Part shown: positions 6,275 through 30,605 of the stretch, one piece after another
How positions within the stretch are numbered: position 1 is the first letter of the stretch
Layout of the letters: each line of letters starts with the position of its first letter
DNA from: an uncultured archaeon
Lineage (GTDB): Archaea > Asgardarchaeota > Thorarchaeia > Thorarchaeales > Thorarchaeaceae
Reading direction: 5' to 3'
NCBI GenBank assembly: GCA_964590575.1
Contig: CAZPWM010000022.1
Location: forward strand, 911-39,838
DNA: 38,928 bases
The notes under the pieces: model-generated
Told to the model about the DNA's origin: nothing
The model's input: the letters and a program-made list of their open reading frames with translations, nothing else
Database searches by the model: none
Program-made: the position numbers and the translations under genes

Positions 6275-6383
6275 GCCGCGGTAGATCAGCCAGGGAGATC
6301 GCACGGCTGAAGACCGTGTTGTCTTCGGGTTACTCCCGTCGACACGGGACTTGTCGCCGGTTCAAATCCGGCCCGCGGCACCA
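6275..6383 (+). tRNA. tRNA-Phe(GAA) with a 32-nt non-canonical intron (6319-6350, position 43/44)
   Basis: GCCGCGG/CCGCGGC acceptor, CACGG-CTGAAGA-CCGTG anticodon arm, GCCGG-TTCAAAT-CCGGC T arm, encoded CCA. Extra 32 nt follow the anticodon stem. TTTATAT lies ~35 nt upstream. Confidence 0.92.
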
Positions 6384-10239: not shown

Positions 10240-10346
10240 GGGTCGGTGGTCTAGATGGCAATGATACTGCATTGACATCTATTCTTGGTTTCCAAGAATA
10301 ATCAAATGTGCAGTGGTCGGGAGTTCAAGTCTCCCCCGACCCACCA
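10240..10346 (+). tRNA. tRNA-Val(GAC) with canonical 37/38 intron (10278-10307, 30 nt)
   Basis: GGGTCGG/CCGACCC acceptor, CTGCA/TGCAG anticodon stem, BHB with TTGA/TCAA helix and CAT/ATG bulges, GGGAG-TTCAAGT-CTCCC T arm, CCA. Confidence 0.95.
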
Positions 10347-13166
10347 TTATTCCTTGCTCACACTTTTGGATAATTCAAGCCACTCAATTCCTAACTTGTC
10401 CAGCGCCCACTGAGCAATATTGTGACAGTCACCACAAACATATGCCCACTCTGTAGGGTCTAATTTCTGCAAATACTTCTTCTTTTGAGTCATTGATGGA
10501 TGATGGGTGTTGCCATCTCTTCTGTGTAGAATTAAGGATGCTTTCTCATTTTCACAACCACATAGGGAACACGTTTCTCCAAAAAGTGCATTCTTCAAAT
10601 CCCTTGTTTTTCCCTTAAAACCAGCGCCCAGTTTTTTGAATTCATCTGATGATGGTACATCATCATCTGGAAGTTCGAGAGTAACTTTAGATTTGTCAGA
10701 GATTCTCCTCTTTGAGAGAAATGACTCTATTCTTTTCCAATCATAACCGAAGACTTTCATGAGCAGATGGATTCCAAGATGACATCTGTCACACAAAGGA
10801 GCCCATTCGTTTGGTTTTAGTGATTGAAGACGTTTCAACGATCTAAACAGATAACGATCATGCTCTGTTCCATCCTTTCTATGCAAGTGAAGGTTCTTCG
10901 CGGATTTTTTCTCACTTCGACATGCGTAACATGTAGTCCCAAACATCTTCACACGGGTGTCTTTTAGGTTCTGTCTTCTTTTTCGTTGATATTCTCTTCT
11001 CTTCAAATCAACGTTAACTTTTGTTTGGGACTCTTTCCCGTCACGTGGCATCCACCCTTGCTCCAAAAACGCCTTCTGAATTGTTCCAGCAGTAACATTC
11101 AAGATGCTTCCAATTTCCCTCTGTGTAAATCCCTCGACAAAGTAGAGATGATGAATCCAATCATAATCTAAATGCTTCGTAGTTGTAGCAACACGAGGGC
11201 TCCATTTCATTTTTCGGAATGCTCGCCGAATGGTTTTCCTGCTAATGCCCATTATCTTGGAGATTTGCTCAAAAGAAAGACCTTCCTGAAAATACAACCT
11301 GCCAATTTCCTCTATAGTATCTTTTCCTTTTTTTGTTCCTATAGCCTTTCGAATGGTTTCTAGGTTCATCCCTGTACGTTCAGATATTTGGATGAATGTC
11401 AAGCCGTTTTCATAGTGAAGTTTCTTTAGTTCTGACAGGCTCAGCTTTCTCCGATTTGATTGAATTTGTATCTTCCATCCATATCTTCTGAAAACACCAC
11501 GTAGGCTTCTTATTGTCATGTTCATATCATCAGCGATATCTTTGACGGCTTGCCTCTCAACATTGTATCGGTGATAAATATTAAAGTCACGTAGAGCATT
11601 TCGTACTTGGTTCCGAGAAATTCTGAGTCTTCTAGCTATTTCTCTCTGAGTTAATCTTCTTTTGAAGTATAATGCATAAATTGTATAGCAAGTCCGGTTC
11701 ATTCCAGGCGGTGTAACATCAAGGTCTTTTCCAATTCTACTAACCAAATGATCTCTGTTCCGTTCAGCTTGCTCCACAATTAAAATCCATGCTCTTTCAA
11801 CAGCCTTGGCTGAGCGTTCTTTCTCGGTTTCAGCACTCGCTCTTACAATTCTCTTGAACTTCTCCCGTTCCTCCTCTGAGAACTCAGCAAATAGATTTCT
11901 GAGTCTCCGTCGATACCTCTCCTCCTCACTCTCATACTCAACGAGAATTTTCGGTACTCGTTGCATCTCACCAGTCAGGGGGTCCTGGACATAGTCGTAG
12001 TCATCGTCAGCGTCCATCTTCTCTTCCAGTATGTCTTGGACACGCCTCACAAAGTCCTCTAGGTCTTCGGTGAGTGACTCATCCTCTGCGCAGACCTCGT
12101 TCTCTTGTGCATCAGTCTGAACCTCTGGGTTCTCAGTGATCTCTTGCTCATGTTCTTCAGGCTCAATGACCTCTTCCTCAACCTCGCCCTCCTCATGGGT
12201 CACTGGTTCAGACTCTGGTTCTTCATAGGACTCAAGAGTGTCCTGTTCGAAGTCTTCAGGTCCTCCATCTGGTTCAGGAGTTTCCTTGATTGATGCCTCA
12301 GACTGCTCTACCTCATCCTCTATGATTTCTGAGAGTTCACCGGTCTCGTACTGATCCTCTTTGGACCCTGTTGGTTCAGGTTCCGAGTGTACCTCACTGA
12401 CCTCTTGCGTTTCCTCCTCTATCTCTGACTCCTCAGGACTCGTGCTTGAGGTCTTGGCATCAGGAGCCTCCTTAATCTCAGATTTAGTGGTCGTTTCTCC
12501 CACTTCAGACTCCTGACGGATTATTCGATTAGTGCCTTTCTCATTTACAGGTTCTTGGACTGGTTCTGATTCAGCTTGTTGTTCAGTGGACTCCTGAGCC
12601 TCTGGTTCGGAGACTTCTTGTTTTTCATTCTCAGTCTCGGTTTCAGCCGCCTCTGCTGACCCACCCTTAGTTTCCATAGCATAAGCCATTCCCCCACCTG
12701 CATCATGATACGACTCTGTTGACTCAGTCATCTCTGAGGATGCACTATCATCACTTCCTGCTTCTACTTCACAGTCCTTTCTCGAAGCCCCCTCCAGCTG
12801 GCGATTCATGTCATTTACATATTCATCATGGAGTTCCTCCCTGACCTCGTCAAGGTCATTCTCCAAACCATCCTCAAGGGACTCCTTGCCGTCCACATCT
12901 TTCTCCCGTTGAAGTTCATCAAACTCCTTTGCAGCTGCCTCAGCAATGTCTTCGATCTCCTTGAGCTTTGTTTCGTACTCATCGAACTCCTTGGCTGCCT
13001 CATTGGCTATTCGCTCAATTTCCTGCTGACGATCAAAGTCTTCTGCGGCCTCCTTTGCGGCTCTCTCGACCTCGTCAGGAACCTCTCTATTTTCAAGCTC
13101 GTCGGGGGTCTCCTCATACTCTCTCTCTGAATACCAATCTGCATCATCTTTCCGTTCATGCTGCAA
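10347..13166 (-). CDS. Large acidic protein with C-terminal tandem HTH repeats and two HNH-like zinc-binding domains
   Basis: Glu-rich N-terminal half and about five LY..GLT..EI HTH units. Two FG.TC..C...L.LHR.DG..H...W...C..CH repeats follow. TTG 13166 is preferred as start because it is conserved with the paralog (ORF track 13193). The stop abuts the tRNA CCA. Confidence 0.8.
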   Translation of the reverse strand: MQHERKDDADWYSEREYEETPDELENREVPDEVERAAKEAAEDFDRQQEIERIANEAAKEFDEYETKLKEIEDIAEAAAKEFDELQREKDVDGKESLEDGLENDLDEVREELHDEYVNDMNRQLEGASRKDCEVEAGSDDSASSEMTESTESYHDAGGGMAYAMETKGGSAEAAETETENEKQEVSEPEAQESTEQQAESEPVQEPVNEKGTNRIIRQESEVGETTTKSEIKEAPDAKTSSTSPEESEIEEETQEVSEVHSEPEPTGSKEDQYETGELSEIIEDEVEQSEASIKETPEPDGGPEDFEQDTLESYEEPESEPVTHEEGEVEEEVIEPEEHEQEITENPEVQTDAQENEVCAEDESLTEDLEDFVRRVQDILEEKMDADDDYDYVQDPLTGEMQRVPKILVEYESEEERYRRRLRNLFAEFSEEEREKFKRIVRASAETEKERSAKAVERAWILIVEQAERNRDHLVSRIGKDLDVTPPGMNRTCYTIYALYFKRRLTQREIARRLRISRNQVRNALRDFNIYHRYNVERQAVKDIADDMNMTIRSLRGVFRRYGWKIQIQSNRRKLSLSELKKLHYENGLTFIQISERTGMNLETIRKAIGTKKGKDTIEEIGRLYFQEGLSFEQISKIMGISRKTIRRAFRKMKWSPRVATTTKHLDYDWIHHLYFVEGFTQREIGSILNVTAGTIQKAFLEQGWMPRDGKESQTKVNVDLKRREYQRKRRQNLKDTRVKMFGTTCYACRSEKKSAKNLHLHRKDGTEHDRYLFRSLKRLQSLKPNEWAPLCDRCHLGIHLLMKVFGYDWKRIESFLSKRRISDKSKVTLELPDDDVPSSDEFKKLGAGFKGKTRDLKNALFGETCSLCGCENEKASLILHRRDGNTHHPSMTQKKKYLQKLDPTEWAYVCGDCHNIAQWALDKLGIEWLELSKSVSKE
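12805..13007 (+). repeat. 203-bp near-identical block, copy 1 (copy 2 at 25528-25730)
   Basis: Ungapped manual alignment, about 12 mismatches in 203 bp. Confidence 0.9.
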
Positions 13167-13490
13167 CTTCAGGCACCCAAATCGAGAGTTCAATTATCGC
13201 AGGTTAGGAGGTGTATAGAAAGGACCTAAGTCTTCACTTGGACATACATGCATAATCATAGACGGTCTTACCAAATTTTGGATGATGAAAACATCTCCTG
13301 TCAGTAAATAAAGACTATATTGTGTTTATTACCGAAAAGGGAATCTCATATCGGATATTGAGCATTCCATATGGTCAAAAATGCAATTCGAGAATGGATT
13401 TTAGTATAGGTTCACCCTGCCGATGATTGTGAAGTAGAACTAGACAATTGTTGCTCTGACAGTTCTTCGCATTTGTGATATTCATTAAAA

Positions 13491-13516
13491 GAGTTCAAAT
13501 CACGTCCGGCCCACCA
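13491..13516 (+). pseudogene. Degenerate tRNA 3' fragment (positions 51-76), partner of the 10130 fragment
   Basis: GAG-TTCAAAT-CACGT-CCGGCCC-A-CCA followed by a pyrimidine tract. The acceptor strand pairs 7/7 with GGGCCGG at 10130. Confidence 0.75.
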
Positions 13517-13596
13517 CTTCTTTTCTGTTTGTAATTTTCAGATTGTTCTTAAAAAAGAGAGAGGAAATGAGTGCTTTCACACTCATATTCCATAGA

Positions 13597-19734: not shown

Positions 19735-20448
19735 CTAAGATTTCTTGAAACCGATTGGATCAGCAAGATAGTCAGAGACCATGATGAACTCCTCGTCTGT
19801 CATCCTATCCTTAATCAAAATGAGACCTTCATCGACTAGATTGATGAGCGTATGAAGGTTGATTTTGAGCTCATCAGCACGCTTTCGAGCTCCCTGCTGG
19901 CGGTCTACAACAACAGCAATATCGTCAACTGTAAAGTCACTAACGCCACGTTTCTCCAATTCCGCTATGACCTGGCCACGAGCGACCAACTTACTTTCCA
20001 TTCCAGTAACAAGATCATCCACAAGACAAAGAGCATCACCATCTTTCACATCACCCTCGAGAAAGGCATGTTGGCCGTACCTCTTGATTTCCTCCTGAAG
20101 TTCTTGTTCAGTTCTGACACCAACTATCTTCCGAGTATGACATGCTGGGATACCGGTCGATAGTGACATTGCAGTAGCAATAGGAATTCCAGCAAACGCA
20201 ACACCGACGAGTCTATTGATGTGCGGTGCATCTTCCATCACGAGGGTTCCCAGAGCTTGACCTACTTTCTTGAGAGTTTCTGGGAAAGAAGATAGAATTC
20301 GTAATTGAATGTAGAATGGACTCCATAATCCAGAATGCAATGTCCAGCCCTCAGGGTTGTCACGCACGGATGTCAACAGCATCCTGTTCTCGTAGATGTC
20401 TTGCATGATGTTCCTCTTCAGGGCTGTGTCCACCAACCTCAACACCAA
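19735..20448 (-). CDS. pyrE: Orotate phosphoribosyltransferase-like protein
   Basis: WTLHSGLWSPFYIQLR, GVAFAGIPIA, PRPP loop LVDDLVTG, VVVDRQQG. Confidence 0.78.
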   Translation of the reverse strand: MVLRLVDTALKRNIMQDIYENRMLLTSVRDNPEGWTLHSGLWSPFYIQLRILSSFPETLKKVGQALGTLVMEDAPHINRLVGVAFAGIPIATAMSLSTGIPACHTRKIVGVRTEQELQEEIKRYGQHAFLEGDVKDGDALCLVDDLVTGMESKLVARGQVIAELEKRGVSDFTVDDIAVVVDRQQGARKRADELKINLHTLINLVDEGLILIKDRMTDEEFIMVSDYLADPIGFKKS

Positions 20449-22694: not shown

Positions 22695-22733
22695 GCATAA
22701 AAAAATGCGTTCTATTACCTACCCTTGGTAAGC

Positions 22734-22740
22734 TTTTTAA
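22734..22740 (+). promoter_or_regulatory. TATA-like box positioned for a tRNA start at 22766
   Basis: TTTTTAA ~26-32 nt upstream of GCGCTCGTTGTC. Confidence 0.5.
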
Positions 22741-22765
22741 CGCTCACCATTGCGATGGATTCGAA

Positions 22766-22777
22766 GCGCTCGTTGTC
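22766..22777 (+). pseudogene. 12-nt tRNA-Gly 5' stub (positions 1-12)
   Basis: GCGCTCGTTGTC is identical to the first 12 nt of the intact tRNA-Gly(GCC). It pairs with CGAGCGC of the 28310 fragment. Confidence 0.6.
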
Positions 22778-22793
22778 AGTGCTTCAAACACAT

Positions 22794-22898
22794 GCGTCCG
22801 TTGTCTATAGGACTTCAACTTCTGATGTCCTGACTAAGGGGCTATGATGGATCCCTGCCACTGTGCGGGGGCTCATCCCTCGGAACCGTAGAACGGAT
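22794..22898 (+). pseudogene. 5' portion (positions 1-42) of tRNA-Gly(GCC) with two BHB introns (22808-22837 at 14/15; 22861-22893 at 37/38)
   Basis: Removing the introns gives GCGTCCG-TT-GTCTAGGGGCTATGAT-G-GATCC-CTGCCAC-GGAT. The 37/38 intron has a CTGC/GTAG helix. No T arm follows. Confidence 0.85.
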
Positions 22899-25889
22899 TT
22901 CATACCCTTCATCTTTCAGACTGTTCCTCACTGATTCAATATCTTCGAGAGTTTGTTTTGACAACCACTCATCCATTATCTGCTCTTTTGTGCTATCATT
23001 TGGTTTCATTAAGAAAGCGCATTTCATCTTAGAATCATCATCACGAATCCTTGCTTGCCATCTTACACTAACCCTTCCTGATCGTCTGTAGTAAGAAACT
23101 TGCATGGGGTCGACTGAAACATTGATTCCGAACCCTCTGACTATTGTTGCCTCGTCATCAATCAGTTGATTTCTGTAATCATAGACGACCTTCAGAATCT
23201 CTTTTGCTGCGTTGGCTTTGAATTCATCTTGGTCATTTTGGAGATTTTCGAGTTGACCTATTGTCAAATATATCTCACCAGCATTCCCTGTTTCATACTC
23301 TCTGTTTGCTTCTTTTGAGGTCTTCAAGAACTCAACTGCTTCCTGCGATAACTTCGATTGAAAGTCGTATTTTTCGGATTTATTCCCTGCACATAGTGCA
23401 TGTCGCCGGTTCCAGCTAATTTCGCCATTTTCAGAAACACAACCTTCCTGCGAGAACATGTCTTGAATTAAAGCGCGTTGAGCGTCTTTAGACCAATTAT
23501 GAACATCAGATGGGAGTCCATAATTCAAGATGGTCCGGTCACCCTCGGGTATCCCCCAGAAAATGGCTGCTTCAGACATTGCTGAATTGATATAGATTTC
23601 ATATACACCTCTACTTTTCCTGAATTTCCTTTTCAGGTGTATATCTCCGAAATTACGTAAGGTGTTTTCAAAACGATTTATTCGATCCTCAGTTGATTCA
23701 TAATACATGAGACCTTTACTACCACGGACTTGACCATCACTGACAACTGTTCCTATAACACGTGCACGCAGTATTTCTAGCTCCTCACCTTTTGGAAAAT
23801 CAGGATTTTCAAGACCACCTTGACCTTTGATTCCGGTGATTTTCTCCACTCTTTTTTCAAGTAATTCTGTGTCATGTCCCATTGCATCTAATAGGAACTT
23901 GAGTGTTTCACCATGAATTCTATTTTCTTTCAAATGTCGAGATTTTCTGAGTGTTTCATTGTCGGTGTTCTGAAGTATTTCATCCATTATCTTGTTAAAA
24001 TGAATCTTGGATTCGGGTAATCTTGGATTCAATCCAAGATTGCTTAACGCACTTTCTTGAAGTCGCTCTAACATCTCATTCTCTTTGAAGTAGTAATACT
24101 GTTTAGACCATGCATTAAGCATGTTATTCCTGGATGTATCCGAAATCCAAAGATATACCCGATCATCCACAACACCAATTCTGACCTCAGTTTCTTCTAT
24201 CTTCAACCGCTTCTGGATTTCTTTACCCAACGTATCTTTACTTTTTTCTAGAGATTCTGATAGCCTGTGAGTGTCTTTCTGATCGTTTTCATCTAAATCA
24301 AGTTCTAGATACGACACGTGTTTCTCGCTTTCTGATATCCTAACTAGGAGTTCATCTACAAGCTCCTTAGTTTCCTGGATGCAACCACTCTCTTTCATAG
24401 TGACTTTGAAACGAGCATCGGATTGGTTTTCACTGTTCAGCATTGCTGTTTTCACAATTTGACTCCATGCTTTCTCTACAGCTTCAGCTGGATGTTCATC
24501 CTCGCTCTCTGCATTCTCCCGAACAATCTTCTTGAACTGCTCACGTTCTTCCTCTGAAAGTTCAGCAAAGAGGTTACGGAGCCTACGACGATGTTTCTGA
24601 TCCTCAGTTTCGTACTCAGCGAGTATATTCGGAACTCGCTGCATCTCACCAGTCAATGGATCTTGGACATAATCGTAGTTATCATCCATTCCCATTTTCA
24701 AATCTAACATGTCCTTAACGCGCTTAACAAAGGCCTCGAAGTCTTCAGGGAGGTCTTCTTCCTCGACGATTTCATTCTGCAAATCATTCTCGATCTCGCG
24801 TTCTTCGTTCTCTACCATCTCTGATGCTGCAGATTCCGCAACCTTCTGTTCTTCATCACTCACTTCTTGTGACTCTGTCCCATTCTGTGATTCCACATTA
24901 GAACCTTCAATTGGTACATCTACATGTTCTAACTCATCCAATTTAGGTTCATCATGCACTTCCGTCGCATTATGTGACTCTTCTATCTCAAGGGTATCCT
25001 CTAAATCAGATTTCACCTCACTCTCTTCCGGTTCTTCTGCGGGGTACAGACTATCATCAGCTATATACTCTCTTGTTTCCTCATGTTCAAATTCAGACTG
25101 ATTCTCTTGGGGAGTTTCACCCTTGGAAACCTCGGGTTCAGTTACTCCAGACGGTTCGCTGGATTCGGGTTGTTTAATTCCTTGTTTCTCCACAGATTCT
25201 GTAGTTCCAGAGGACGAGTATTCCTCCTGTTCTGTTTCTGCAGATTCAGGTCGAGTGATTCGGTTTCTAAATTCTTCATCAGGTTGCTCCTTAACATCAT
25301 CCATTGGTTTACTGCGTTCACTGTGTTCCTGCTTCTCATACTCAACCTCACTCTCGACCTCAGAATTTTTATCATACTCAGATTCATTCTTGGTTTCCAT
25401 TGTATAGACCATACCGGATCCTGCTTCTTCGTATGACTCACTGGACTCAGTCATCTCAGAGGACGAGCCCTCCTCACCTCCCTCCTCTATGTCAATATCT
25501 TTTCGCGAGACCCCTTCAATCTGATGGTTCATGTCATTGACATATTCATCATGGAGTTCCACTCTGACCTCGTCAAGGTCATTCTCCAACTCATCCTCGA
25601 AGGACTCCTTGCCGTCCATATCTTTCTCCCGTTGAAGTTCATCAAACTCCTTTGCAGCTGCCTCAGCAAGGTCTTCGATCTCCTTGAGCATTGTTTCATA
25701 CTCATCGAACTCCTTCGCTGCCTCATTGGCGATTTGCTCGATTGCCTTCTGTCGTTCAATGTCTTCAGCGGTCTCCGCCGTCGTTTTCTCGACTTCATCA
25801 GGAATCTCCCCTCCTTCTGGAGTGTCTGGCTGTTCATCATACTCTGTTTCTGAATATCGCTCTGCATCAGAGGTTCTATCATACGGCAA
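22842..25889 (-). CDS. Large acidic protein with a C-terminal LAGLIDADG-like endonuclease region (paralog of 10347-13166)
   Basis: Shared N-terminal and central blocks with the paralog, and two LAGLIDADG-like helices (RVIGTVVSDGQV, ALIQDMFSQEGCV). TTG 25889 preferred (ORF track 25946). The last ~18 codons read antisense through the tRNA relic. Confidence 0.78.
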   Translation of the reverse strand: MPYDRTSDAERYSETEYDEQPDTPEGGEIPDEVEKTTAETAEDIERQKAIEQIANEAAKEFDEYETMLKEIEDLAEAAAKEFDELQREKDMDGKESFEDELENDLDEVRVELHDEYVNDMNHQIEGVSRKDIDIEEGGEEGSSSEMTESSESYEEAGSGMVYTMETKNESEYDKNSEVESEVEYEKQEHSERSKPMDDVKEQPDEEFRNRITRPESAETEQEEYSSSGTTESVEKQGIKQPESSEPSGVTEPEVSKGETPQENQSEFEHEETREYIADDSLYPAEEPEESEVKSDLEDTLEIEESHNATEVHDEPKLDELEHVDVPIEGSNVESQNGTESQEVSDEEQKVAESAASEMVENEEREIENDLQNEIVEEEDLPEDFEAFVKRVKDMLDLKMGMDDNYDYVQDPLTGEMQRVPNILAEYETEDQKHRRRLRNLFAELSEEEREQFKKIVRENAESEDEHPAEAVEKAWSQIVKTAMLNSENQSDARFKVTMKESGCIQETKELVDELLVRISESEKHVSYLELDLDENDQKDTHRLSESLEKSKDTLGKEIQKRLKIEETEVRIGVVDDRVYLWISDTSRNNMLNAWSKQYYYFKENEMLERLQESALSNLGLNPRLPESKIHFNKIMDEILQNTDNETLRKSRHLKENRIHGETLKFLLDAMGHDTELLEKRVEKITGIKGQGGLENPDFPKGEELEILRARVIGTVVSDGQVRGSKGLMYYESTEDRINRFENTLRNFGDIHLKRKFRKSRGVYEIYINSAMSEAAIFWGIPEGDRTILNYGLPSDVHNWSKDAQRALIQDMFSQEGCVSENGEISWNRRHALCAGNKSEKYDFQSKLSQEAVEFLKTSKEANREYETGNAGEIYLTIGQLENLQNDQDEFKANAAKEILKVVYDYRNQLIDDEATIVRGFGINVSVDPMQVSYYRRSGRVSVRWQARIRDDDSKMKCAFLMKPNDSTKEQIMDEWLSKQTLEDIESVRNSLKDEGYEIRSTVPRDEPPHSGRDPS
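25528..25730 (+). repeat. 203-bp near-identical block, copy 2
   Basis: See 12805-13007. Confidence 0.9.
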
Positions 25890-26209
25890 TTTCAGACCCC
25901 GATTCATAGATTTCTGAATAGACCATTTTCTCACTTCAAGATTCAATATAGAAGATTAATCAGTTTTCAGTGGAGTATAATTAAGGGTGATTAGAAGTCG
26001 GTTTCAGCCTTATTGTGTGTTAGAGTCCTTCCGCTTGTTAGATAATGGTTCTTAGAATTTTTTTAACGATTTCTGGCATCCATTTCTCTTTTTGTCATAC
26101 TATTTTGGTCAAAAGTGCAATTCATTTTTCGAAACCTAAGCACATCTGAAGAGTTTAATGATTCAATGCAATTCGTGAGAATTATGCATGATATTAAACA
26201 ATGGAGAGA

Positions 26210-26345
26210 TGGTGCGCTCGCCGGGACTCGAATTCCCGACCACGTTCGAAACTGAACGCAGTTCCCGGCTCCCGACCACATCCGAAACGGATGCGATTGC
26301 CGGATCCGTGGCAGGGATCCATCATAGCCCCTAGACAACGAGCGC
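26210..26345 (-). tRNA. tRNA-Gly(GCC) with two non-canonical introns (26269-26298 at 48/49; 26233-26263 at 53/54)
   Basis: GCGCTCG/CGAGCGC acceptor, GATCC-CTGCCAC-GGATC, CCGGG-TTCGAGT-CCCGG after splicing, CCA. Both introns form hairpins with 4-bp central helices. TTTAAA lies upstream on the minus strand. Confidence 0.92.
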
Positions 26346-26606
26346 TGCAACGATTGTCGAGTGTATGATGGTTTTAAAGTTTGCCAAATATCTACAATAG
26401 AAAAGGGATCTATGTAGTTATTGAGATTGCATTTGACCTTACAAGATGCGTTACGTTTCCAGGAGGCGAACAGATACTAACTCAGTTTCAGGGACTAGTT
26501 TGCACAGAAGCTCCAATGCCCGTATCTACAACATACAAAACTTCATGGGTCATAGGAAAAGCAAATCTCATAGATCCATATGCTGTAAGATTATTACCGC
26601 CCTAAG

Positions 26607-26639
26607 CTAACCCGGGTTCGAATCCCGGCGGATGCACCA
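26607..26639 (+). repeat. tRNA-Gly 3' fragment 1 (positions 43-76)
   Basis: C-TAAC-CCGGG-TTCGAAT-CCCGG-CGGATGC-A-CCA plus a T-rich tract. Confidence 0.9.
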
Positions 26640-26716
26640 CTCTTTTCTATGTATTGACTAGTACAAAAGTCAGTTGATGGCAAAGCATTTCTCTTCTCAC
26701 TGCTATGTCTTAAAGC

Positions 26717-27208
26717 ATGGGAGTTTTTCAGAAGCAGTATAGTAATGTAAGTCTGCTTCTAGCCATCTATACAATGTTCTCTCCAAGCATGATAGAGAGT
26801 GAAACTTGGGGTAGTGGGGAGCATATGGTTCTTGATGCAGTTACAGTGCGTACAATGACGTCAAGCAGCTTTTGGGCCTTTGAATCGATTAATTACTACA
26901 CACTAGGTGGACCTCCAAATTCCAGCCAATTTCTATTTCCCTACTCCGCCTCAATGCCTGTAAACATTGCGTGGCTCATAGGATGTCTATCAATGGTTAT
27001 TGCCCTACTCGTTCTGAATGGAAAGATTTCTCGCAACTTGGGATTCCTTATACTGATAATAGCTACACTACTTCCATTCTTTTTGCCCGGCATAAACAGT
27101 TATTCTGTGGAGTCGTTTTACACTTATAGCAGAATGGCGCTACCGATTCCTCAGATTATCGGAATCATTATTCTTGTGTTCACTCGAAAATGGAATCTCA
27201 TCAAATGA
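26717..27208 (+). CDS. Hypothetical membrane protein (cassette 1)
   Basis: 163 aa with several TMs, the sole ORF between tRNA fragments 1 and 2. Confidence 0.7.
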   Translation: MGVFQKQYSNVSLLLAIYTMFSPSMIESETWGSGEHMVLDAVTVRTMTSSSFWAFESINYYTLGGPPNSSQFLFPYSASMPVNIAWLIGCLSMVIALLVLNGKISRNLGFLILIIATLLPFFLPGINSYSVESFYTYSRMALPIPQIIGIIILVFTRKWNLIK

Positions 27209-27226
27209 TTTCAGACCTAGATGAAC

Positions 27227-27255
27227 CCCGGGTTCGAATCCCGGCGGACGCACCA
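27227..27255 (+). repeat. tRNA-Gly 3' fragment 2 (positions 48-76)
   Basis: C-CCGGG-TTCGAAT-CCCGG-CGGACGC-A-CCA. Confidence 0.9.
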
Positions 27256-27271
27256 TTCTCATTCTTCTCAC

Positions 27272-28210
27272 TCAAACCTCCACACACTCAATCATTTTTC
27301 CCCATTGGTTCATCGTCACGTTTCGAATGAAGCCTGCAGATTCAAGCATCTGATTCAGAGGGTCTGACACATCAATCTCAACCGCACATATCAGGTTCGG
27401 TTGATGCATCATCACGCGCCTTAAACCCTCTGAGAGGAGAGCTTCTTCTAGTCCAAGGTTTCTGAAATCAGGATGAGTCCCAAGTGCTTCCATTTCTGCG
27501 ATACCTGTCAGCGGATCCAATCGATACATGCAGAATCCGACGAACCTATCGGAATCATCAACCATGGCTAGATTAAGGTCTTGATGATAGAACTCTGCTT
27601 GTGTCATAAATCTCATTTTTTCTAAAGTCATATGCTGACGACAGTGATCGTAGACTGATCCAATCACTTCGATAAAATTGACATAGTCCTGTTCGTTTCT
27701 TAGACCTCTTATTGTGTATCCCTCTGGTAACGGGTTGTCAGGTATCGAAGCGTCCTGAGGGAATCCATAATTGTATTCGTGAAGACCATAATCTTCATAG
27801 CCCATTTCTGTTAGGACTTGGGCTCTCCTAGAATCAGGTCCTACTGTGTACATATACATTCGAGACCTTCCTTCACCAACAATGGTTCTCTCAAGCTTCT
27901 CAATCTCTTGAAACAAATCTTTCTCCATGAGTTTATAGTCTGGGTGAACCTCTATGTGGTAATTTGCTGCTGAGCCTCGATGAGACACAGCAATAATATC
28001 AGAATCGTCTTTGTTTGATACTCTCCAAATTTTAAATGCCTCATCATCCTTAAGAGAATAATTCGGACCGCACGGACCAAATTTCTGGTTCTCAACCTTT
28101 GTAGGAATCAGGTAATGGAGTGTGCCAGTTTGTTTGTAGATCTCTAGCAGAAACAAACGGACCTGATCCAAGTTTCTATCAAAACTGAATGGTCTTCGGA
28201 CTATCTTCAC
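27272..28210 (-). CDS. GNAT family acetyltransferase, tandem domains (cassette 2)
   Basis: EVHPDY and LGTHPDFRNLGL motif-A-like segments, ESAGF. GTG 28210 after GAGGT preferred. Confidence 0.8.
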   Translation of the reverse strand: MKIVRRPFSFDRNLDQVRLFLLEIYKQTGTLHYLIPTKVENQKFGPCGPNYSLKDDEAFKIWRVSNKDDSDIIAVSHRGSAANYHIEVHPDYKLMEKDLFQEIEKLERTIVGEGRSRMYMYTVGPDSRRAQVLTEMGYEDYGLHEYNYGFPQDASIPDNPLPEGYTIRGLRNEQDYVNFIEVIGSVYDHCRQHMTLEKMRFMTQAEFYHQDLNLAMVDDSDRFVGFCMYRLDPLTGIAEMEALGTHPDFRNLGLEEALLSEGLRRVMMHQPNLICAVEIDVSDPLNQMLESAGFIRNVTMNQWGKMIECVEV

Positions 28211-28309
28211 ATCTCTACCTCTTGAATTGACCTCTGTGTAGCTGATAAATAACACTGGAATTACGCAATATTATGATAGTACCCTAACAACGAGGTTGGG
28301 AAAAATAGA

Positions 28310-28337
28310 CCGGGTTCGAATCCCGGCGAGCGCACCA
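28310..28337 (+). repeat. tRNA-Gly 3' fragment 3 (positions 49-76)
   Basis: CCGGG-TTCGAAT-CCCGG-CGAGCGC-A-CCA. Confidence 0.9.
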
Positions 28338-28472
28338 CCTTCTGTTTCGCAATGATAGCGAAAATCTCAGTAGCCAGACTTCCAGTGCAAGATTGAAAAG
28401 GAAGGTGAGACCTAGTACTCTTTTGGCGAGTTGAGTTAGATGCAAAAGGGCACTCAAGAGTCATGTTTTAAG

Positions 28473-29633: not shown

Positions 29634-29657
29634 GTTCGAATCCCGGCGAGCACACTA
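29634..29657 (+). repeat. tRNA-Gly 3' fragment 4 (positions 53-76, degenerate)
   Basis: G-TTCGAAT-CCCGG-CGAGCAC-A-CTA plus a T tract, with two substitutions relative to fragment 3. Confidence 0.82.
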
Positions 29658-29663
29658 TTTCTT

Positions 29664-30605
29664 CTATCTTGGTTTACCATAGACTCGGATAGCGTTCTCC
29701 CAGTATAGTTTTTGAAGGACTGAGAGGGGTAGGTCAAGTCCGTTAATGAAGGTCCCACCTGAGTCTTTGGTGTCGGCATCCTCGAATGGCAAAGGTTCTC
29801 CTCGGACATCGATCTCCCATAGATATCTCTGAGCTAGGTATCTTGGACCAAAGTACTCCATGTTTCCACGGTTTGCTGACAGATCTGTGCCAAAGAGAAT
29901 TCTATTAGAGTACTTTACCAAAAATTCTCGCGCCCTCTTCACATCTTTACTAAGTTCTCGAGCCATCCATCGTGAAGATGCTGTATCTAGAATGACATTT
30001 GGAAATCGGTCCAACCAACCAGCAAGATTAGGAAGTCTATGTATCTCAGGCTGTGCTCCAAAATGTGGAATTTGAATTTTCACCCTAGGATGCCGCTCCA
30101 TCACAGCCTCCAGCTGGCTCAGATTATCCTCCTTTGTACCGTACTTGGATTCATCCTGATAGTGCAGATGAAAGTATGTGTCCGGGTCTGCTACATGAAT
30201 AATGATTGGAAGATTGTTATCTTCCAGTGCCTGAAATACAGGGTCGAGTTTGGGACTGTCAATCCTGAAGCCAGCAGGAACATCCTCAATATAGTCCCGC
30301 CATCGAGGACCAAACCAACACTTCGCAAGTGAATATCCCTCATCTTTTGTTCGAGAGATGTCATCGATGACTGGTTCAACATTATAGTGGGCGATATCTC
30401 TGAGCGACAGATACTTAGCAAATACAAACCTCTCAGGATATTTCTCTCTAGCATATTGGAATCCTTCCTTCGAGTGGACTATCCCAATCTGCGCAGTCAC
30501 ACCAAACTCATCTTCAATCTGGAGCATCTTGTCGAGCGTGTCAGGTTCTCCAATATGCGTGTGTGCATCAAAGAAAGGACCTTGATACTTCCAGTTGTCT
30601 GTCAA
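29664..30605 (-). CDS. Amidohydrolase family 2 protein
   Basis: FDAHTH, IIIHVAD, IPHFG, LDTAS, RILFGTD, WENA. Confidence 0.88.
   Translation of the reverse strand: MTDNWKYQGPFFDAHTHIGEPDTLDKMLQIEDEFGVTAQIGIVHSKEGFQYAREKYPERFVFAKYLSLRDIAHYNVEPVIDDISRTKDEGYSLAKCWFGPRWRDYIEDVPAGFRIDSPKLDPVFQALEDNNLPIIIHVADPDTYFHLHYQDESKYGTKEDNLSQLEAVMERHPRVKIQIPHFGAQPEIHRLPNLAGWLDRFPNVILDTASSRWMARELSKDVKRAREFLVKYSNRILFGTDLSANRGNMEYFGPRYLAQRYLWEIDVRGEPLPFEDADTKDSGGTFINGLDLPLSVLQKLYWENAIRVYGKPR

Follow-up and report, generated by a model that had tools for sequence, protein, structure and literature searches.

In a stretch of 38,928 nucleotides from the genome of an uncultured archaeon of the family Thorarchaeaceae (assembly GCA_964590575.1, contig CAZPWM010000022.1, positions 911 to 39,838 of the forward strand), hereafter the window, the resident gene for the glycine transfer RNA (tRNA) with anticodon GCC, tRNA-Gly(GCC), lies in two pieces. 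We conclude that this resident gene (type A) was killed by an endonuclease island that brought along an interrupted replacement (type B), and that a later deletion then fused the open reading frame (ORF) of the endonuclease to the tRNA relic; the locus is not the result of a clean and recent cut. The island would extend from 22899 to about 26610 (all positions are those of the window) and would carry the endonuclease gene and its own tRNA-Gly(GCC), type B, both on the minus strand. Type A would be a dead relic, consisting of tRNA positions 1-42 with two bulge-helix-bulge (BHB) introns and a promoter, and of the T arm through CCA, with positions 43-47 lost. Taken as a whole (a reduced mobile island in the resident gene, a dead type A, rescue by type B, a secondary deletion at the left junction and an endonuclease as the driving force), this history seems to us probable, if by no means assured. 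We infer that the endonuclease broke the gene and that its immunity lies in the introns.

What is left of type A lies on the plus strand. The 5' relic (22794-22898) covers positions 1-42, is 93-94% identical to the contiguous genes of two relatives (G006 and G005) and holds two introns, whose positions were located by comparison with the tRNA-Gly(CCC) and tRNA-Gly(UCC) genes of the same genome: one in the D loop (22808-22837, ambiguous by one A; BHB check H2 3/4, H3 5/6) and the canonical intron at 37/38 (22861-22893; BHB check H1 5/5, H2 4/4). The 3' relic (26607-26639) comprises the T arm, the 3' acceptor strand CGGATGC, an A and CCA. Upstream of the broken gene stands a putative promoter box, AAGCTTTTTAACG (22730-22742, plus strand), which recurs upstream of the intact orthologs in relatives and resembles boxes found about 30-40 nt upstream of this genome's other tRNA genes. 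Joined by a script from their coordinates and freed of the two introns, the pieces are called tRNA-Gly(GCC) by ARAGORN. The plain joined pieces gave no call, the introns having to be removed first, and an enumeration of 1320 single deletions of the joined pieces returned implausible Ser, His and Leu calls only.

The empty site was sought in an alignment of 12 tRNA-Gly(GCC) genes from relatives. Eleven of these are contiguous, with CCGGC between GGAT and the T arm; an extra intron inside this stretch interrupts the twelfth, from G030. The two pieces reported by the first-pass annotation are therefore real, and so is its interruption of a tRNA gene by some 3.7 kb of foreign DNA. On the left, the flank is collinear with G005, G006 and G002; on the right, flank and next gene (26657-27216) are collinear with the sequence that follows the intact tRNA in G007; both flanks are thus native. 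Contigs from the runs X2 and X3 span both junctions with 0 differences, and the arrangement is therefore not an assembly artefact. The empty allele (22898 joined to 26607 or 26611) was found as an intact gene in relatives and in none of the contigs of runs X2-X5, a negative of little weight since contigs drop rare variants. One contig of run X5 (depth 12.8) joins 26210 to 26609 on opposite strands; this joint probably comes from the tRNA of a relative, the T arm being nearly palindromic. In the interrupted gene of G030 (locus L023), the extra intron lies in the 3' strand of the anticodon stem, beside the break point of the window.

Inside the insert lies an intact tRNA-Gly(GCC), which the first-pass annotation had overlooked. 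This type B gene (26210-26345, minus strand; acceptor GCGCTCG/CGAGCGC) is recognised by ARAGORN after script removal of two introns, and its D and anticodon arms are the same as those of the relic. Intron 1 (26269-26298, minus strand) sits at the boundary of the variable loop and the T stem, and intron 2 (26233-26263, minus strand) in the T stem/T loop, at 53/54; each has a canonical BHB (H2 4/4, H3 8/8). A putative promoter box, CTTTAAAA (26372-26379, minus strand), stands about 27 nt upstream and is kept, together with its surroundings, upstream of type B in G108. Across six relatives, intron hairpins and acceptor stem show compensatory changes. The assembly that holds the window is archaeal, of 3.40 Mb and 43.5% G+C in 194 contigs; an ARAGORN run on it that permits introns yields 33 tRNAs, 17 of them intron-bearing, and no tRNA-Gly(GCC). 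The whole genome has only two GCC anticodon arms, that of the relic and that of type B. Since type B is intact and bears BHB introns, and the sole other GCC arm belongs to the relic, type B is taken as the working gene. Neither it nor the relic was detected in the window by default ARAGORN or by Rfam, so the locus also serves as a warning: standard tRNA finders overlooked both the dead relic and the working gene. The two type B introns are alike, both being long hairpins that end in GTGGTCGGGA plus one base, which suggests from their sequences that one may have arisen as a copy of the other.

The history of the left junction is best seen from related islands. The closest endonuclease genes, at about 75% DNA identity, are those of G083, G107 and G108 and of a metagenome contig, L066. 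G107 and G108 hold type B and the endonuclease in an order and on a strand that match the window. In L066, read in the orientation of the window, a homolog of 19735-20448 is followed by the promoter and a decayed 5' fragment of tRNA-Gly(GCC), a Schlafen/AlbA_2 gene, the antisense endonuclease, a gene for a TraG/HerA-like ATPase, an intact antisense type B, an ORF and a 3' tRNA fragment. In G083, the 5' tRNA fragment ends cleanly after GGATCCGGC, that is, at the variable-loop/T-stem boundary, and then come the same extra gene and the endonuclease as in L066. As far as these sequences go, the common order is 5' fragment, endonuclease, type B and 3' fragment.

The break in the better-preserved islands of L066 and G083 coincides exactly with the position of type B intron 1. 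Relative to these, the relic of the window stops 5 nt earlier, the extra gene between the 5' fragment and the endonuclease is missing, and the last codon or codons of the endonuclease, with the stop, are gone. Because a single deletion would account for all three, and because the islands of G083 and L066 break the tRNA at the variable-loop/T-stem boundary, the 42/43 junction of the window looks secondary. The primary insertion point would then have been that boundary, and the left junction is better read as a later deletion that would have removed the intervening gene, tRNA positions 43-47 and the end of the endonuclease gene with its stop. At the other end, the homology of the insert to the G108 island ends at about 26387, up to which L064 matches by BLAST; the right end of the insert (26347-26606) has no recognisable feature and matches only itself in a BLAST search of its own genome. 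The reciprocal case occurs in G015 (locus L016, contig G015:C10), where type A is intact, type B is decayed (its 5' part lost, its anticodon loop altered) and a 30%-identical member of the endonuclease family lies between them.

The endonuclease ORF (22842-25946, minus strand) encodes 1034 amino acids from a TTG start, its database version (P0002) having 1021, and combines an acidic N-terminal module with a C-terminal double-motif LAGLIDADG domain. The domain takes up the C-terminal 456 residues (22899-24266, minus strand), with motif 1 at 23733-23771, ending in SDG, and motif 2 at 23442-23474, ending in QEG (both minus strand). An AlphaFold2 model of these residues built with 30 family members has a mean predicted local distance difference test score (pLDDT) of 92.5 and a predicted template modelling score (pTM) of 0.90, and shows two alpha-beta-beta-alpha-beta-beta-alpha units with the LAGLIDADG helices packed centrally, as is predicted for a homing endonuclease. 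All 14 of the Foldseek matches in the PDB at E<=0.001 are LAGLIDADG proteins, including I-DmoI, I-Tsp061I, PI-PfuI, PI-SceI and WhiA; the TM-score against I-DmoI, normalised to I-DmoI, is 0.52-0.61. Sequence searches gave less: Pfam LAGLIDADG_3 scored 18.3 bits (E 0.0029) on the C-terminal 456 residues, below its cut-off of 22.5, Pfam assigned no family at E<=0.01 to the whole protein, and a sequence-profile search of the PDB returned only a designed helical protein (E 3.5). The helices 160-177 and 260-274 end in the putative catalytic acids D177 and E/D274, each of them kept in 30/30 sequences; for this reason the ORF likely encodes an active nuclease. The N-terminal part of about 500 residues is acidic and is common to a second ORF of the window (10347-13193), with 62% identity over 222 residues.

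At its 3' end, the endonuclease ORF reads antisense through GGAT, the 37/38 intron, the anticodon arm and the D stem, and stops at the CTA of 22842-22844 in the D loop, just as the first-pass annotation had described. Its last 18 codons and the stop (22842-22898) are thus antisense tRNA relic. The C-termini of the close homologs P0004, P0005, L054 and L055, which that annotation had proposed to compare, lie 1-3 residues beyond the ...EGYE position, and the 18-codon tail is therefore read-through. Conservation of the tail among homologs, which the first-pass annotation had named as a refutation of its reading, is seen in only one of 11 sequences aligned with P0001: P0003, which has the tail with three residue changes, is 65% identical overall and 86% identical over the C-terminal domain. 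Evidently this is the same junction, which is therefore common to a clearly diverged organism. The stop codon does come from the relic, then; that the insertion itself removed the ORF's own stop, as first suggested, fits less well than the later deletion of the endonuclease end, by which the ORF would have come to extend into the tRNA.

The first-pass annotation had instead read the locus as a single, recent and precise insertion of a 3.7-kb cassette between positions 42 and 43, which left both halves undecayed and cut off the stop of the ORF. There is something to be said for it: the joined pieces fold as a cloverleaf that ARAGORN accepts, both flanks natively adjoin the intact tRNA in relatives, the 5' relic matches G005 and G006 at 42/42 exon positions, with all differences confined to introns, and the end of the ORF is short by only 1-3 residues. 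For the cloverleaf, however, the C at 26607 and any 4-nt variable loop would suffice. In the window, the end of the ORF comes after GGAT, and CTAAC stands before the T arm; it agrees with the CCGGC of relatives in only 2/5 bases, and BLAST homology to intact genes restarts at 26611, not at 26607. Positions 43-47 are thus not preserved, and the split is not gapless. The acceptor strand of the 3' piece, CGGATGC, would pair G3:U70, and a second 3' copy 620 nt downstream (27227-27257) carries CGGACGC, a perfect acceptor match. In the related islands, moreover, the break in the tRNA falls 5 nt later and the extra gene still lies between relic and endonuclease; a cassette that ends within its own ORF is unlike a precise element terminus; and the shared junction of P0003 at 65% identity speaks against recency. 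We regard a precise insertion of this kind as unlikely.

A further reading would have the two pieces still at work, as a split tRNA or around a giant intron, joined in cis or trans as in Nanoarchaeum, Staphylothermus and Aeropyrum. The 5' piece does retain a promoter and two good BHB introns, its exons are undecayed, and tRNA halves 4.8 kb apart are on record for the tRNA-Lys of Staphylothermus in the passages concerned of Chan et al. (2011, PMC3218864), where split tRNAs are described with a BHB at the joint, a G+C-rich leader/trailer helix of 12-14 bp and a promoter before the 3' half; mobile elements have been put forward in the literature as their cause. The window resembles such genes in having two pieces on one strand, kilobases apart, and differs from them in lacking the joint BHB and the leader/trailer helix. 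Across the big junction, the BHB check, which the gene's two small introns pass, gives H2 2/4 and H3 1/6, and no 4-bp central helix forms in alternative registers (-3..+3 and -3..+7). The energy of a leader/trailer duplex is no better than that of 300 shuffles (z +0.15 to +0.45; base composition kept, dinucleotides not), and inspection by eye of the 90 nt that precede the 3' piece showed no clear promoter box comparable to the ones at 29 other tRNA genes. For group I and II introns there was no match, either window-wide at the gathering score or within 22700-26750 at E<=5. With neither a BHB, nor leader/trailer complementarity, nor a group I intron, the big junction has no known way of being spliced, and the joined acceptor stem would contain G3:U70. 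The intact type B inside the insert, finally, makes any joining unnecessary, and the pieces would not be the sole source of this tRNA. We therefore consider a working split gene highly improbable. Returning to the island with its replacement gene, the tRNA-Gly(GCC) of the cell would come from type B, because nothing permits splicing of the big junction.

Downstream of the break, the 3' end of tRNA-Gly (T arm to CCA) is present in four direct copies that are progressively decayed (26611-26639, 27227-27257, 28310-28343 and 29634-29664), and each segment between them is a single gene: ORF163, a GNAT acetyltransferase (27272-28255) and ORF372. The genome G002 passes from its tRNA directly to the homolog of 29662 onward. 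Judged by their sequences, the copies look like a stack of small insertions at the 3' part of the tRNA. These repeats and the arrangement in G002 would suit the remnant of an integrase-type plasmid or virus at a tRNA gene (SSV- or pNOB8-like), in which the fragments would be attachment (att) repeats and the LAGLIDADG gene a passenger or a domesticated DNA-binding protein. The TraG/HerA-like P-loop ATPase of L066, typical of conjugative elements, would also fit, and tRNA genes are the usual att sites of archaea according to the relevant passage of Sugahara et al. (2012, PMC3293823). Integration of this type, however, rebuilds the tRNA and leaves a core direct repeat, and neither is found at the junctions of the island; nothing is repeated at either of them, as the first-pass annotation had noted. 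No integrase family was found among the Pfam-scanned ORFs of the window and L066 (some small ORFs fell outside the scan), and the retention of both catalytic acids in 30/30 family members does not suit a mere passenger or a domesticated protein. A partitioned integrase of the SSV type was tried and rejected: joined by hand in the frame of the ORF, the ends of the insert add only 12 codons before a stop. On balance, an integrase-type origin appears improbable, if less so than a working split tRNA.

The preferred history, an endonuclease island that broke type A and supplied type B, gains from the company that the endonuclease keeps elsewhere. Its family was searched in 61 genomes and found in 26, with up to 8 copies per genome. 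We inspected 19 homolog loci, 18 of which could be assessed (L051 runs off its contig), scoring tRNA adjacency by eye. Eleven of the 18 have an intron-rich tRNA gene convergent with the ORF, its CCA end 0-50 nt from where the ORF stops, the tRNAs being Phe(GAA) at four loci, Lys(UUU) at three (identity assigned by eye), Ala(GGC) at two, and Asp(GUC) and Gly(GCC) at one each. A rough estimate puts the chance of such adjacency well under 1%, with at least five tRNA species represented and with orthologs in kin that are not independent. L035 and L037 have, on the far side of the ORF, a 3' fragment of the tRNA in question. The remaining seven loci and the second copy in this genome (contig C10) adjoin protein genes. 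The Rfam tRNA model, run on 16 homolog loci, found only three tRNAs, because these genes are full of introns. Among the tRNA-Phe(GAA) genes, that of the window (6275-6383) and that of L035 have an intron at the variable-loop/T-stem boundary; some of those in the window and in L034-L037 have introns in the T loop or D loop, in a set that varies between genomes, and four tRNA-Phe(GAA) genes have a member of the endonuclease family abutting their 3' end.

The ORF that shares the acidic N-terminal module (10347-13193, minus strand) belongs to a sister family and ends with no gap at the CCA end of tRNA-Val(GAC) (10240-10346); its homologs also abut or overlap the 3' ends of tRNAs. It has three sigma-70 region 4-like helix-turn-helix units and, by eye, two CxxC...H.H...CxxCH units. 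A model of this family (pLDDT 83.7) has HNH domains as its top Foldseek matches, the best at E 0.28, and Pfam gave nothing for HNH; the model thus gives a hint, and only that, that the Cys/His units may be HNH nuclease domains. At L076, L078, L090 and L086, ORFs enter a complete tRNA gene antisense; three stop at the antisense T loop, and one runs through the 3' part of a tRNA-Leu to the anticodon stem. Because three sister-family ORFs thus stop in an antisense T loop, a stop borrowed from a tRNA is a recurring by-product of the neighbourhood.

How the island might have reached the resident gene and spared the host can be put as follows. The endonuclease would cut the uninterrupted tRNA-Gly(GCC) near the variable-loop/T-stem boundary, and the island would thereby arrive. 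The introns of type B break up the variable loop, T stem and T loop, where the related islands break the resident gene; the interrupted type B may therefore escape cutting, and the host would stay viable. The two BHB introns would in this way disrupt the recognition sequence in DNA and leave the mature tRNA unchanged. We entertain tentatively, as a possibility that we would not yet bet on, that this is a natural cleave-and-rescue island and that its nuclease family, together with the sister family and its possible HNH domain, would be the missing agent behind the repeated gain of non-canonical tRNA introns and of tRNA fragmentation in Thorarchaeota, perhaps also in other Asgard archaea.

Counts of the presumed target were made over 86 genomes of the archaeal family, several of them incomplete and with kin that are not independent of one another. 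The uninterrupted stretch GGATCCGGCCCGGGTTC (<=1 mismatch) occurs in 52/86. It is found in none of the four genomes with a close endonuclease, compared with 52 of the 82 others, and in 0/7 genomes of genus g4, which holds two of those four. The exact type B signature occurs in 15/86, and 0/15 have the uninterrupted stretch as well. As support for cutting, these counts are suggestive only.

Several points weigh against the history that we favour. Only position ties the endonuclease to the break point. The 0/4 count is weak: two of the genomes are of one genus, kin are non-independent, and G083 is 80% complete, with its type B unassembled. The introns need not come from the island, because 11 genomes with type B have no close endonuclease and the type B of G003 is located at the native locus. 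The association with tRNA genes may stem from the shared N-terminal module or from another mechanism, since the sister family, which has the same module without LAGLIDADG motifs, also abuts tRNA 3' ends. The view of the left junction as a secondary deletion relies on two related islands rather than on an intermediate form of this lineage, and the 3' fragment on the far side of L066 has an acceptor, TGGTCGC, that mismatches its 5' fragment and therefore points to further rearrangement there. The downstream 3' fragments (27227, 28310 and 29634) look like repeats left by an integrase. Exons identical at 42/42 positions beside diverged introns would likewise agree with a young break or with a gene still in use.

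Among known systems, the enzyme fold is that of the LAGLIDADG enzymes encoded in BHB introns of archaeal ribosomal RNA (rRNA) genes, such as I-DmoI and I-Tsp061I. Those introns split a conserved RNA gene without target duplication, the allele that carries them is immune, its site being interrupted, and they are spliced out at a BHB, with the endonuclease ORF in sense orientation. At the present locus, by contrast, there is no junction BHB, the ORF is antisense to the broken gene, and rescue comes from a second copy. In synthetic cleave-and-rescue drives, which are engineered with Cas9 and used in animals, a nuclease destroys an essential gene and a linked, recoded copy resists it. The likeness of the island to these would be an analogy, drawn from gene order and intron position only.

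Why archaeal tRNA genes are so frequently interrupted or split, and by what route the interruptions come, has long been an open question. The published model nearest to ours is that of the tRNA-Thr(GGU) locus of Caldiarchaeum subterraneum, for which the relevant section of Sugahara et al. (2012, PMC3293823) proposes that a mobile element brought an intron and scattered a fragment, the intron protecting the site. There, as here, a tRNA fragment stands beside a full copy of the same tRNA with an extra intron, with mobile DNA between them. The Caldiarchaeum locus, in the same section, has a putative recombinase and a reconstituted tRNA, with fragment and full copy as direct repeats; in the window, a LAGLIDADG endonuclease lies between, the spare tRNA is inverted with respect to the relic, and the resident gene has not been rebuilt, nor is there any duplication. 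HeimM2 of Heimdallarchaeum is an Asgard mobile element that exactly adjoins a tRNA gene and bears a homolog of rRNA-intron homing endonucleases, an enzyme suggested in the corresponding passage to have been co-opted for site-specific integration (Wu et al. 2022, PMC8813620); HeimM2 is a single case, between a 16S rRNA gene and tRNA-Arg(TCT), and that passage reports no broken or spare tRNA and no family-wide pattern. SegB of phage T4, a free-standing homing endonuclease among tRNA genes, promotes the inheritance of its own tRNA region (PMC2330249), and differs in being of the GIY-YIG family, in residing in a phage genome and in neither destroying nor replacing a tRNA gene. A preprint of October 2026 (doi 10.64898/2026.10.13.758758) describes Asgard tRNA introns as gained many times, by a route that it regards as still open; mobile elements, as tested there, gave no general route, and the available text contains neither 'homing' nor 'LAGLIDADG'. 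Our literature search, with supplementary files outside it, found no published report that links a nuclease to tRNA introns or tRNA breakage.

The interest of the locus is that it combines a broken tRNA, the gene of a probably active site-specific nuclease and a spare tRNA with introns exactly at the break point, and the recurrence of the family at tRNA genes throughout an archaeal family makes the idea that introns protect against invaders testable at the bench. Even if the link to the nuclease fails, there remains a clear, datable example of the replacement of a tRNA gene by the copy of a mobile element.

Some smaller features of the locus may be added. Between the promoter box and the broken gene lies a 12-nt relic of another tRNA-Gly 5' end (22766-22777, plus strand), made up of acceptor and D stem of the GCGCTCG type; it is also found upstream of intact type A genes (loci L004, L013, L016 and L008; genomes G005, G006, G015 and G020), and because it sits between promoter and gene, type A genes would have an unusually long 5' leader. 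An inversion between two inverted tRNA-Gly genes through their shared 25-nt arm (22837-22861 versus 26308-26332) was considered as the cause of the break and rejected, because such recombination would yield two complete chimeric genes and type B is not chimeric. Within the endonuclease ORF, Rfam returns a sub-threshold match to sR14, an archaeal C/D box RNA (23134-23186, minus strand; 25.7 bits against a threshold of 38, E 0.00056), which is probably due to chance. A truncated 3' fragment of another tRNA lies near the sister-family ORF, at about 13490-13521.

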